A stretch of 64,000 nt of DNA from Nitrospirae bacterium MYbin3 (GCA_002753335.1 PEAD01000015.1:1-64000), one strand, 5' to 3'. Positions 12,223-16,836 are shown, counted from the stretch's first letter. The notes: generated by a model from the letters alone, not told the origin. Numbers and translations: made by a program.

Positions 12223-13929
12223 TTATTTCGAAGAAACCTTCTGAAGCTTGGCCCATTCATCCTTGAGCGTTACGGTTCTATTGAATACAGGTTTGCCGGG
12301 CTTTGAATCCACGGTATCCGCGCAAAAATATCCGAGCCGCTCAAACTGAAAACCGTCTCCCGGTTTTGAATCTTTAAGACCCGGCTCAAGATAACACGGA
12401 TTCAACACCTCGATCGATTTGGGATTTAGATACGAGGTGAAGTCCTTGCCTTCCTCCGCATCATTAGGATTTTCTTTTGTGAACAGTGCATCATACAGTC
12501 TCACTTCAGCCTTGATAGCATGGCGCGCCGAAACCCAATGCAGCGTGGCTTTTACCTTGCGCCCATCAGGAGAATCTCCGCCGCGCGTAGCAGGATCGTA
12601 AGTACAGTGAACCTCAACAACTTCACCGCGTTCATCTTTTACAACACTTTCACATTTTATAAAATAAGCGTACCTAAGCCGCACTTCCCTTCCCGGAGAA
12701 AGTCTAAAAAATTGCTTAGGAGGATTTTCCATAAAGTCGTCTCTCTCAATATGAGGCTCCTTAGAAAACGGAACTTTCCTAGTACCTGCTGCAATGTCTT
12801 CGGGGTTGTTTATCGCATCGAGAAACTCCTCCTGCCCTTCCGGATAGTTTGTGATAACAACCTTCAGAGGCCGGAGAACAGCCATAACGCGCGGTGCTTT
12901 CTTGTTCAGGTCTTCCCGAACGCAGTATTCAAGCAGCGCAAAATCAACAAGGCTCTCTTTTTTACCAACACCGATGCGCTCACAAAGATTACGAATAGCC
13001 GCAGGTGTATATCCGCGCCTTCTCATTCCGGTCAAAGTCGGCATGCGGGGATCATTCCATCCTGTCACATGGCCTTCATTGACAAGCTTAAGCAGCCTGC
13101 GTTATGGCAACACTGTGTAGCTCATATTGAGGCGTGCAAACTCTATCTGCTGCGGATGATGTATGCCGAGTTCATCGAGGAACCAGTCATATAGAGGTCT
13201 ATGATCCTCATACTCTATCGTGCAGATGGAATGCGTAATGTCTTCGTATGAGTCAGACAAAGGATGAGCGTAGTCGTACATGGGATAAATACACCATTTA
13301 TCGCCTGTTCTGTGGTGAGCCTCTTTTTTTATCCTGTACATGACCGGATCGCGCATATTGATGTTGCCCGAGGCCATATCTATCTTGGCTCGGAGCACCC
13401 GGGAGCCGTCCTCAAACTCTCCGGCTCTCATGCGCCCGAACAAATCTAAGTTTTCTTCAACAGGTCGGTTGCGGAAAGGGCTTTCTTTGCCCGGCGCTGT
13501 AAGCGTTCCCCTGTATTCACGTATCTGCTCTGCATTCAGATCGCACACATAAGCCTTGCCTGCTTTTATCAACTGCACCGCATGGTCGTAGATTCTTTCA
13601 AAATAGTCAGAAGCATAGTAAAGCCTGTCTGCCCAATCAAAACCAAGCCAGTGTACATCTTCCATAATTGACTCAACATACTCAATGTCCTCTTTGCTCG
13701 GATTAGTATCGTCAAAACGGAAATTGCAAAGCCCTTTGAACTCGTCAGCAAGCCCGAAATTAAGGCATATGGATTTGGCGTGCCCTATATGAAGATAACC
13801 GTTCGGCTCAGGAGGAAAACGGGTCATAAGCCTGCCGCCAAACTTGCCGGTCTGCATGTCTTCGGCAGCTATCTGGCGGATGAAGTTAGACGGCACAGAT
13901 GAAGCGTTTTCGGGGTTCTGGTTTGTCAT
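12223..13929 (-). pseudogene. glnS: Glutamine--tRNA ligase interrupted by an in-frame TAA at 13102-13104
   Basis: [17 protein letters not shown] in the 5' half and [17 protein letters not shown]...QFERLGYF in the 3' half, in the same frame; the junction reads YTVLP*RRLLKLV. Confidence 0.8.
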
Positions 13930-14033
13930 TTGCGGCTCCTCGAAAAATGTTGTTAAGACTTGATATTTTACCACATTGCTCTAATCAAGCGAGCGTTTAT
14001 GCTAAAATAAAAGACCTGCTCAGTCAGGAGAAA

Positions 14034-14119
<86 letters not shown>

Positions 14120-14152: not shown

Positions 14153-14815
14153 TTACTGACTGATAAGAATTACGACGCGGCGATTTTTTGCCTGGTTTGC
14201 AGATATCGGCTGGCTGTTGTTGTCTGTGTTGGGCATAAGCGGTCTGGTATCAGCCAATCCAAGCACCTGTATCTTTTCTTTGGGAAATCCCTGTTCAATA
14301 AGAAATCGTGCAACAGCGCTGGCGCGTACGGCCGAAAGTTCCCAGTTGGATGGGAATTGGGCCGACTGAATCGGTATGTTATCCGTATGACCTTCGATAG
14401 TAATCCGGTATTTCATATTCATTATGGTCGGTGCAACACTTTTCAGTATCGCAAATGCGTTCTCCATAAGATCCGCTTTCCCTAAATCGAAAAAAACGCC
14501 TTCTTTGAGTTGTATAGCAACCCCGTTAGGCCTCACCTCAAGGGCCATCGCATCCTGCCGGCTGACTATAACGGTCTCGAGCTCCTTCTTTATGTCCTGA
14601 AGATCCTTTTCCTTTTGCTGCAACCCCTTAATGTCGGTGCCGAGGGCCTTGCCTAGAGACTGGGCTATGGTCTTATACTGTTCGACATCCACGGTCGAGA
14701 CTGCAGCAATAAGAACGAAAAAACACATAAGCTGAATGACCATATCGGCAAATGCGAGCTGCCATTGTTCAGCCTCTTCTTCCCTTCTTCTCTGGAACAG
14801 CTTTTTCCTTGTCAT
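14153..14815 (-). CDS. motB: MotB/PomB-family stator subunit (TM helix plus OmpA-like peptidoglycan-binding domain)
   Basis: WQLAFADM..LMCFFV with the conserved Asp, IEGHTDN, SNWELSAVRA, NRRV. Confidence 0.9.
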   Translation of the reverse strand: MTRKKLFQRRREEEAEQWQLAFADMVIQLMCFFVLIAAVSTVDVEQYKTIAQSLGKALGTDIKGLQQKEKDLQDIKKELETVIVSRQDAMALEVRPNGVAIQLKEGVFFDLGKADLMENAFAILKSVAPTIMNMKYRITIEGHTDNIPIQSAQFPSNWELSAVRASAVARFLIEQGFPKEKIQVLGLADTRPLMPNTDNNSQPISANQAKNRRVVILISQ

Positions 14816-14831
14816 CGGATTAAAAAAATCA

Positions 14832-15608
14832 TCAGCTTCTTTTTTTAATGGAAGACCATTTGCGGGGTGGCAGATATGCCTTTAATTTGTCCATGACGAT
14901 AGGGCCGGGTGCCTTGTCCTTCATAAAAAGTATCCCGTCCCTTATTACCGACATAAGAATAATGCGCTCCTCTATCCTGCCCTCGACCTTTACAGCGATA
15001 GGAAGAAAAACCATATATGCTAAAAGAATGCCGTAGAGTGTGGCGGTAAGCGCAACAGCCATTGCAGGGCCGACCTGCTTTATATCGCCGCCCATGGTCT
15101 GCATCATGCTTATGAGCCCGATAAGAGTACCGATAAGTCCGAAGGCCGGAGAAAATTTGGCCATAGACCTAAAAACACCGGTGGATGCCATTTCCTGCTC
15201 ATACGTTTGATTTATCCTCGTATCCAATATTTCACGAAGCTCCTCTTTGGAATAACCGTCAATTAGCATCTGAACAGCATCTTTTAAAAAAATATTCTCG
15301 ATGCCGGGAAGCTCTTTTTCGAGATTAACCCTGCCTTTTGTTGTAAGCTGTTCCGAAATGTAAACCAGTTCGTGTATATAATTTCCTATAGGCAGATCTT
15401 CCCGTTTCATTACAACAAAAAAAGCGCTGAATACCTGCATCACCTGCTTAAGTGGATAACATATAAAAGTGGCCGCGATAGTGCCCCCGAGAACAATTGC
15501 TATGCCGGAGAAATTATAAAAAACACTCAGGCTTGTGGTGGCCTCTGAAGTCGCATAGGACAATATGCCGATTCCAAAAATAATACCGAGTATCGTAGCT
15601 ATATTCAA
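14832..15608 (-). CDS. motA: MotA/PomA-family stator subunit
   Basis: IVLGGTIAAT, PAFGLIGTLIGL, AVALTATLYG; the TTG start overlaps the upstream TGA. Confidence 0.9.
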   Translation of the reverse strand: MNIATILGIIFGIGILSYATSEATTSLSVFYNFSGIAIVLGGTIAATFICYPLKQVMQVFSAFFVVMKREDLPIGNYIHELVYISEQLTTKGRVNLEKELPGIENIFLKDAVQMLIDGYSKEELREILDTRINQTYEQEMASTGVFRSMAKFSPAFGLIGTLIGLISMMQTMGGDIKQVGPAMAVALTATLYGILLAYMVFLPIAVKVEGRIEERIILMSVIRDGILFMKDKAPGPIVMDKLKAYLPPRKWSSIKKRS

Positions 15609-16783
15609 GGCTTAGCACCTTTAAGGGATTTTATAAGCTGGATAAGCTCTTTTTCGATATCACCAGCTTCTATTTCATCAATCTCCTGCCGCGCAGCAAC
15701 CTGATCTTTCACAATACCAGCTATCTTTGATGAAAGGTTGGCGTAAATCTTGGACTTCGCCTCATCGCCTGCTATAAAAGTCAAGATCCCCATTTTATAG
15801 TGGCCGAGCCTTGAGAACGCCTCCTGAAGCGTGTTGCCGTCAACGTAGATAATATCATCCACTTCGGTCAGGTCTTCGATATTCAGGGAACGCCTCTTAA
15901 CCTTCTTAAAGAAACCCTCGCCGACCTCCTGAGCCCAGTCAGCAGCAGCCCGTTTGTGTATGAAGAAAATATTTTCCGGAATCTCACCGGTTCCGATTTT
16001 CTTGTAAATAAGCTCGGGGGTTGTATTTACGATATTTGCAAACTCATGTATGTCTATAAACTCTCTTTCCTGTGCAGATGTTCCGAGAGTTTGGCGGAAT
16101 TCTTCATAAAATTGCTTTGCCTTTTTCAAAAACGTTTTGGAATCCGGCATCTTTAAATATTTAACAACTTCTGATGCGCTCTTCCTCTCTATAACATCAA
16201 TTATGTTTATACTTGCCAATTTCTTAACAATCGTATCAATTTCAAGCTGTGGAATCGAGAGTATATCCCTTATCCTTTGAGAAACTTCGTGATAAGGCAC
16301 ACCCGAATCATCAGTGCCTTGTTTGGTTTGGGATAGATACATAAACTCGATTATGCTGCAGACACTCATAAACACATTGCCTACCGGCTGGTCTGAAACT
16401 TTTTTGCTTGTCCTGTGGAGCCTGTCAATAGCTGATTTGGTTATCGCCTGTATGATTTTGGGGCTTTCGCGAAGATGCTGCTCCAAAACCTCTTTGTCAA
16501 TTATTATAATCTCGCAAAAATCATCCGCCACAGCAGACGCTGTGCGGGGCTCACCGCTCAAAACACCCATCTCCCCAAAAACATGACCCGGTTTGATATG
16601 CGCAAGAGTGACCTGATTGTTGTTGACAGTTTTATAAATAGTAACCGAACCGCTCTTTACCAAAAAAGCGGTCTCACCCGTCTGCCCCTCTTTGCAGATG
16701 AGCTGTCCCTTATAAAAAGTTTTGACGTTGTAAGTACCCATAAATCTGCTCTCGCCCCCTTTCAATGCATTGAAAACTATCAT
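15605..16783 (-). CDS. Multidomain protein: cNMP-binding domain, HTH-like region(s) and FliG C-terminal-like domain
   Basis: EGQTG..FLVKSG, GHVFGEMGVL..PRTASA (cNMP). C-terminal DDIIYVDGNTLQ...KSKIYANLSSKIAGIVKDQ...IQLIKSL resembles FliG_C. Alternative start at ATG 16741. Confidence 0.75.
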   Translation of the reverse strand: MIVFNALKGGESRFMGTYNVKTFYKGQLICKEGQTGETAFLVKSGSVTIYKTVNNNQVTLAHIKPGHVFGEMGVLSGEPRTASAVADDFCEIIIIDKEVLEQHLRESPKIIQAITKSAIDRLHRTSKKVSDQPVGNVFMSVCSIIEFMYLSQTKQGTDDSGVPYHEVSQRIRDILSIPQLEIDTIVKKLASINIIDVIERKSASEVVKYLKMPDSKTFLKKAKQFYEEFRQTLGTSAQEREFIDIHEFANIVNTTPELIYKKIGTGEIPENIFFIHKRAAADWAQEVGEGFFKKVKRRSLNIEDLTEVDDIIYVDGNTLQEAFSRLGHYKMGILTFIAGDEAKSKIYANLSSKIAGIVKDQVAARQEIDEIEAGDIEKELIQLIKSLKGAKP

Positions 16784-16836
16784 AAAACATAGAAACCATG
16801 ACTTGCAATAAAATACATCCTACAAAAGTTGGCTTA

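Follow-up and report, generated by a model that had tools for sequence, protein, structure and literature searches.

An apparently undescribed three-gene system in which a cyclic-nucleotide-binding, CRP-like protein with a FliG_C-like domain is encoded together with its own MotAB stator

The window, i.e., the whole stretch of 64,000 nucleotides analyzed here from Nitrospirae bacterium MYbin3 (GCA_002753335.1, PEAD01000015.1:1-64000), contains a compact unit of three genes, referred to below as gene 1, motA, and motB, or collectively as the triad (Table 1). The stop codon of gene 1 and the TTG start codon of motA share the tetranucleotide TTGA at 15608-15605, and motB starts after a step of 17 nt from the end of motA. 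The unit is bounded on the upstream side by cbiD (Pfam CbiD) and on the downstream side by a convergent tRNA-Leu(CAG) gene. The ORF coordinates and these boundaries agree with the layout described in an earlier note on this DNA. By contrast, the start of gene 1, which that note placed at the first ATG, probably lies at the second ATG (16741), yielding a protein of 378 aa, because that is where both the closest homologue and the database entry begin, the upstream ATG is not conserved in the homologous locus L007, and the promoter-like -10 element overlaps the first ATG. The candidate promoter has a counterpart upstream of the L007 homologue, and the number of sigma70-like matches in the region (nine found versus 6.1 ± 1.8) does not clearly exceed chance. 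A recent tRNA-targeted island was considered and rejected, given that no att-like duplicate was found (no second tRNA-Leu 3′ end in the window), that the GC dip is merely mild, and that L007 has an identical gene order. In the window, the glnS gene (12223-13974) is apparently broken into a pair of overlapping ORFs, at 13102-13974 and at 12223-13068, and it is one 583-aa ORF in L007, which suggests a frameshift or an assembly error.

Table 1. Features of the triad and its immediate surroundings, in window coordinates.
Feature	Coordinates	Strand	Basis or remark
Gene 1 (cNMP domain, winged helix, HTH_17-like module, FliG_C-like domain)	15605..16783	-	392 aa as called
cNMP-binding domain, residues 21-105, followed by a CRP-like C-helix	16469..16723	-	Pfam, 76.4 bits
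Winged helix, residues ~135-232, at the position of the CRP DNA-binding domain	16088..16381	-	Model, CAP alignment, structural neighbors
Putative HTH_17/MerR-like module, residues ~240-290, followed by a basic linker	15914..16066	-	Weak profile matches of homologues
FliG_C-like domain with torque helix, residues 304-391	15611..15874	-	Pfam, structure, phmmer
motA, dedicated PomA/MotP-like clade	14832..15608	-	Pfam MotA_ExbB match
motB, with ion-binding Asp (FADM motif), plug, and OmpA-type peptidoglycan-binding domain	14153..14815	-	Pfam MotB_plug and OmpA
tRNA-Leu(CAG)	14034..14117	+	Convergent downstream boundary, outside the system
Sigma70-like promoter candidate, TTGCAA-18-TATGAT	16779..16808	-	Candidate also upstream of the L007 homologue

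Both end domains that the earlier note had recognized in gene 1 by eye are borne out by profile searches. The N-terminal cNMP-binding domain resembles that of Bd1971 (structural Z 18.1), its phosphate-binding cassette (G70, E71, R80, and T81) is intact, and ligand binding is predicted; among 82 full-length sequences, G70 is conserved in 80, E71 in 75, and R80 in 66. At the C-terminus, Pfam FliG_C matches residues 305-388 with a score of 25.0 bits (cut-off 23.3), the model of residues 304-391 superimposes on Thermotoga maritima FliG_C (1qc7) with a Z of 13.4 and an rmsd of 2.0 Å over 87 of 89 residues, and the phmmer comparison with T. maritima FliG gives an E of 6e-4. FliG_N and FliG_M have no Pfam match in gene 1 at E ≤ 1, as the note had also proposed, and the equivalent region is modeled as the cNMP domain and winged helix. 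MgtE_N was examined as another identity of the C-terminus and discarded, since it has no match in the window protein and scores below FliG_C in the homologues. Searched by itself against 401 genomes of the same phylum, the C-terminal part yields weak matches of FliG size in about 60, the open frames being mostly 325-345 aa long. The domain has diverged across the gene 1 family (25% mean identity), and its tip is more acidic, the mean charge of residues 364-380 being -4.5 versus +0.9 in FliG controls. The basic residue corresponding to R281 is kept in 64 of 82 gene 1 sequences, the window copy has Q at the D289-like position, which is E or D in 41 of the 82, and the basic residue of the GPVR motif, present in 31 of 31 FliG controls, is replaced by D in 58 of the 82. 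For these positions, the numbering of Escherichia coli FliG is placed on gene 1 by a motif that we take to be equivalent, and the label R297 is likewise our assumption.

The middle ~170 aa of gene 1, which the earlier note had missed, is no mere linker; the region contains two helix-turn-helix-type modules. The first forms three helices and a β-hairpin (residues 135-232) in the AlphaFold2 model, residues 60-196 are collinear with CAP 61-197 (E about 1e-4), and the C-helix precedes the winged helix, which is the CRP order that characterizes members of the CRP/FNR group. In the Atlas model of this part, the structural neighbors are of the PadR type (TM 0.43-0.49 by query and 0.51-0.68 by target). 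An HTH_17-like fold of residues ~240-290 is suggested by the full-length model and by weak profile hits, HTH_17 being listed at this segment in 13 of 100 homologues (E ≤ 0.1; one above cut-off), which were chosen from the 150 listed for covering most of the profile and were scanned with Pfam for the best five families each. In the window protein, HTH_17 is not detected by Pfam. The profile of the middle region has no significant match in Pfam or the PDB, the best PDB entry being a MarR-family protein (E 0.12); HTH_Crp_2 is listed in 1 of the 100 homologues, under cut-off, and the NCBIfam CRP model scores far under its cut-off for gene 1. The AlphaFold2 model was built from 17 sequences (pLDDT 75 and pTM 0.31), and the relative positions of its domains are unreliable. 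Foldseek ranks Bd2879 first; this putative cNMP transcription factor likewise has two HTH modules, and it was rejected as an orthologue because the sequence match is confined to the cNMP domain. DNA binding by gene 1 is doubtful because, of all domains, the winged helix shows the lowest conservation (mean identity 18%), with a poorly conserved, non-basic recognition helix (charge -0.2 on average), and because the HTH_17-like module carries a net acidic charge (-2.8); furthermore, by-eye inspection upstream of homologues revealed no evident shared palindrome. Variants of the family (L014:3197-4795, P0023, P0051, P0097, and P0122) include forms with an N-terminal receiver adjoining a hybrid histidine kinase and FliG_C-less forms with tandem cNMP domains, indicating that the input end is modular.

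The profile search retrieved dozens of full-length relatives of gene 1 at the 50% cluster level, and the named hosts include Nitrospirae, Pseudodesulfovibrio, Desulfovibrio, Ca. Magnetomoraceae, Ca. Magnetoovum, Gammaproteobacteria, and Burkholderiaceae. FliG_C is listed in 80 of the 100 homologues scanned. Within the host phylum the system is rare, the middle-region profile matching 3 of 401 genomes, one of them weakly and partially, and this patchy spread still fits either transfer or wide loss. Gene order was compared at 34 loci, comprising 31 of 35 metagenome loci (the weak or partial L041-L044 being excluded), L007, the locus in genome G262, and one Caballeronia record; three of the 34 were uninformative at contig ends. 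As the earlier note had anticipated, the association with motAB is conserved across genomes: of the 27 informative loci with full-length gene 1 (14 clusters at 70% identity), 25 (12 clusters) have motA directly 3′ of gene 1, with an overlapping or abutting junction at 21 of these 25, and gene 1-motA-motB with a MotC-like MotA is present in all seven Burkholderiaceae records examined (of eight in the plasmid collection; the Caballeronia record is counted in both sets). The two full-length genes with FliG_C and without an adjoining motA are those of L017 and G262, and none of four FliG_C-less loci (two clusters; 0.7-5.1 kb of downstream sequence) has motA 3′ of gene 1. Neither a conserved fourth gene nor a flagellar structural gene was found among 55 flanking ORFs scanned. 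In a FastTree phylogeny of the N-terminal part (87 full and 23 short sequences), 10 changes are required to account for the short state, and strong branches force five or more of them, indicating that the N-terminal part persists without the motor; some of the short, FliG_C-less records could be gene-call artefacts. As separate observations, motA is frameshifted in L015 (4082-4854), a near-copy of L012, possibly through a sequencing error, and gene 1 has an MCP gene nearby in Paraburkholderia PGU19 and in G262, where a run of genes for an MCP, an ion channel/PilZ protein, an adenylate/guanylate cyclase, and full-length gene 1 lacks motAB (L079:3301-9165; G262:C39).

By sequence, the closest structural relatives of the triad MotA are PomA/MotP-type stators. 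Seventeen triad MotAs (the window copy and those of 16 loci, after removal of duplicates, partial sequences, and the Caballeronia copy) fall together on one side of a branch that has an SH-aLRT of 100 in a quick IQ-TREE run. According to the available portion of the PomA study, its interface has a positive face (R88/K89/R232) and a negative face (E96/D114), and R88, E96, and D114 are indispensable for motility (Hu et al., PMC10374538). The R88 position is basic in none of the 17 triad MotAs versus all 25 controls, which are the best-match MotAs of the phylum and the host and are not all confirmed flagellar; the K89 position is basic in 1 of the 17 and the R232 position in none. The positions of G90 and G228 are each K or R in 17/17 triad MotAs versus 0/25 controls, and the latter is K in all seven Burkholderiaceae sequences. 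The negative face is retained (E96 in 17/17; D114 as D or E in 17/17). The window MotA has the E96/D114 face, is devoid of R88/K89/R232, and has gained K91 and K232. The Burkholderiaceae partners group with MotC-like sequences and have K at the R88 position. In E. coli, the charge pairs between stator and FliG are R90/D288-D289 and E98/R281, as given in the accessible text of PMC12505986. The threonines associated with Na+ are largely retained in the triad clade (T158 in 17/17, T185 in 15/17, T186 in 17/17, and all three in 15/17); the window MotA has Ala at T185, and the Burkholderiaceae partners have A or S at T158. In MotB, the plug and the ion-binding Asp are intact and the OmpA-type domain is present. 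Three stand-alone motAB pairs (L089, L090, and L091, in G274, G022, and G318) are sister to the triad stators (support 94); their MotAs keep the R88 charge, and no FliG_C gene is adjacent in the loci scanned.

The host genome possesses a canonical fliF-fliG cluster, in which FliG is assigned by Pfam and the other gene names are those we presume from the sequence, together with one flagellin-family gene, two further motA genes, and six class III cyclases. Its other stator locus (L008:8180-11024; G000:C36) reads motC-like, motB, PilZ-like (by eye), and motA, i.e., one motB and two motA genes. Canonical FliG and flagellin-family matches were found in all three whole genomes checked that carry full-length gene 1; G262 has 16 flagellin-family matches, ordinary stators, and no triad-type MotA (best 38% identity). 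A different arrangement was noted in eight genomes of one family within the same phylum, where an ORF of ~470-490 aa lies directly 5′ of motA (L104, L106, L110-L114, and L116; e.g., L112:15-1481, plus strand; G230:C8 and G005:C1). The five ORFs scanned are FliF_C-TM-FliG_M-FliG_C fusions, followed in the loci read by two motB-like genes and a TPR-like gene, and the fusion is the sole FliG_C match in four of five genomes tested (71-94% complete).

The FliG_C-like domain of gene 1 very probably docks on the co-encoded, private stator, because the genes are translationally coupled, FliG_C and motAB are lost together, and the charges of the two partners have shifted reciprocally. The earlier note had pictured a soluble cNMP protein on its own stator; conserved gene order, coupled loss, and reciprocal charges now support this picture well, in which the docking itself is predicted from sequence. 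Of the two roles that it offered, a nonflagellar motor or sensor is favored since the middle of gene 1 is CRP-like, and the case for a clutch or decoy acting on flagellar stators is weaker since the co-encoded MotA is devoid of charges needed in flagellar motility. The latter role keeps some likelihood, given that all three whole genomes checked are flagellated and that two full-length copies have no adjoining motA. The role of the triad is likely nonflagellar. Its output would lie in the CRP-like part because the cNMP-winged helix-HTH part repeatedly persists alone, and this output may be transcriptional, although we put this forward tentatively. We provisionally prefer to view the triad as a signaling motor, in which a cNMP-responsive, CRP-like protein and its private stator together sense the coincidence of cNMP and ion-motive force. 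MotA5B2, which MotB anchors to peptidoglycan, would be made together with the gene 1 protein, the FliG_C tip would fit the cleft between two MotA subunits, as in flagellar FliG, and the re-coded charges would keep this tip apart from the flagellar motor. Both the FliG_C tip and the HTH modules may be presented differently upon cNMP binding. As ions drive the MotA ring to rotate, the cleft geometry would change and hence how long the gene 1 protein stays held, and holding at the membrane versus release would decide if the winged-helix/HTH part gets to its target, for which DNA is the simplest candidate. The portion of PMC11302681 at hand reports that isolated FliG_C binds solely closely spaced MotA pairs, with at most three per stator; given such asymmetric cleft spacing, rotation should cycle grip and release. 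With less assurance still, a flagellar-type stator may have been repurposed in at least two stator lineages as a one-component sensor, which would grip and release a cAMP/cGMP-dependent transcription factor by means of a FliG mimic and thereby provide, through gene expression, a flagellum-free joint readout of ion-motive force and cyclic nucleotide.

Rotor contact has been proposed to release the stator plug (PMC10374538, in the part available), and docking of the FliG mimic might accordingly unplug the stator and cause a cNMP-gated leak of Na+ or H+, with the HTH modules serving to oligomerize or anchor the protein. The intact MotB plug and Asp, the Na+ threonines retained in the clade, the non-basic HTH surfaces, and the position of the G262 gene 1 after an ion-channel-PilZ gene and a cyclase gene are consistent with such a channel. 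However, the HTH modules would be needless for a leak, and the recurrent persistence of the cNMP-winged helix-HTH part without FliG_C or a motor would be left unexplained; we consider this mechanism unlikely, albeit a serious contender. A flagellar accessory is somewhat less likely again, whether as a reserve stator capped by the FliG mimic and released to the motor by cNMP, or with gene 1 as a clutch or decoy on flagellar stators. Evidence against such an accessory is the loss of R88/K89/R232 from the triad MotAs, R88 being indispensable in PomA motility, the absence of flagellar structural genes from the flanks scanned (0/55 ORFs), and the other stators of the host; evidence for it is the flagellated hosts (3/3 genomes checked), MCP neighbors at two loci, a full-length gene 1 retained in G262 beside ordinary stators only, and the flagellar-type anatomy of the stator, with its plug and peptidoglycan domain. 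It is improbable that gene 1 uses its HTH modules to polymerize, forming a ring or a track along DNA or a cytoskeleton, and performs stator-driven mechanical work as a minimal rotor: FliG_C is a torque receiver by origin, and flagellum-derived rotor-plus-stator modules exist without flagella (FliF-FliG fusions), but gene 1 has neither a membrane anchor nor FliG_M, and the flanks scanned hold no conserved fourth gene. That gene 1 just regulates motAB, with FliG_C as a passive remnant, is hardly credible, since the divergence of FliG_C and the missing motA at two loci, which would fit it, are outweighed by the presence of FliG_C in most homologues scanned, its loss along with motAB, and reciprocal charge changes in two MotA lineages.

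The preferred sensor of cNMP and ion-motive force may be compared with several known systems, and its individual parts are all familiar. With the flagellar stator-rotor pair (MotA5B2 or PomA5B2 with FliG_C; 1qc7, 8bri, and 8ucs), the triad shares the FliG_C fold and torque helix, a PomA-like A subunit with the E96/D114 face, and a B subunit with the Asp, plug, and peptidoglycan domain. By contrast, the triad tip forms part of a CRP-like fusion protein, the unit is located away from flagellar genes, and its MotA has exchanged R88/K89/R232 for new basic residues; without FliG_N/M, gene 1 would form no C-ring, unlike flagellar FliG. The cNMP domain, C-helix, and winged helix are arranged as in CRP/FNR factors, to which gene 1 adds the HTH_17-like and FliG_C domains and from which it differs in its unconserved recognition helix. 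Bdellovibrio Bd2879 (9SFA) also has two HTH modules, but it ends in a zinc-finger-like region, according to the accessible description. YcgR, FlgZ, EpsE, MotI, and FapA are cytoplasmic proteins, several of them controlled by second messengers, that act where stator and rotor meet; in the available portions of the respective reports, YcgR, FlgZ, and MotI are c-di-GMP/PilZ proteins, all of these clutches and brakes act on the flagellar motor, and none is described as mimicking FliG or as being encoded alongside a private stator. No PilZ domain is matched in gene 1 by Pfam, and the protein departs from the PilZ clutches in predicted ligand and fold as well as through its own stator. Zorya recruits cytoplasmic effectors. 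Like ExbBD, TolQR, AglRS, and ZorAB (the GIT class; PMC12505986, in the part available), the triad would use a 5:2 ion motor outside the flagellum, but its stator keeps the plug and peptidoglycan domain, has PomA/MotP best matches, and has a FliG-derived client. The accessible text of PMC12505986 mentions no FliG-derived client and neither “cyclic” nor “Crp,” and its supplementary gene lists could include such stators; that of PMC13277936 contains no cNMP-FliG_C-motAB unit. The earlier note knew of no described system of this architecture, and our literature searches, which covered mostly openly available main texts, likewise found none, nor any stator client that is a soluble regulator instead of a rotor ring or periplasmic arm. 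The triad is a real, conserved, and apparently undescribed system, whose mechanism we infer. If correct, the mechanism would link ion-motive force directly with a cNMP-responsive regulator, and the stator-FliG gear would be re-codable into a private pair. As the published FliG_C-stator structure required an artificial fusion (PMC11302681, in the portion available), the triad would offer a natural, untethered FliG_C-MotA pair for asking whether FliG contact alone unplugs stators, and it is directly testable because its hosts include the cultured, nonpathogenic Pseudodesulfovibrio, Caballeronia, and Paraburkholderia.
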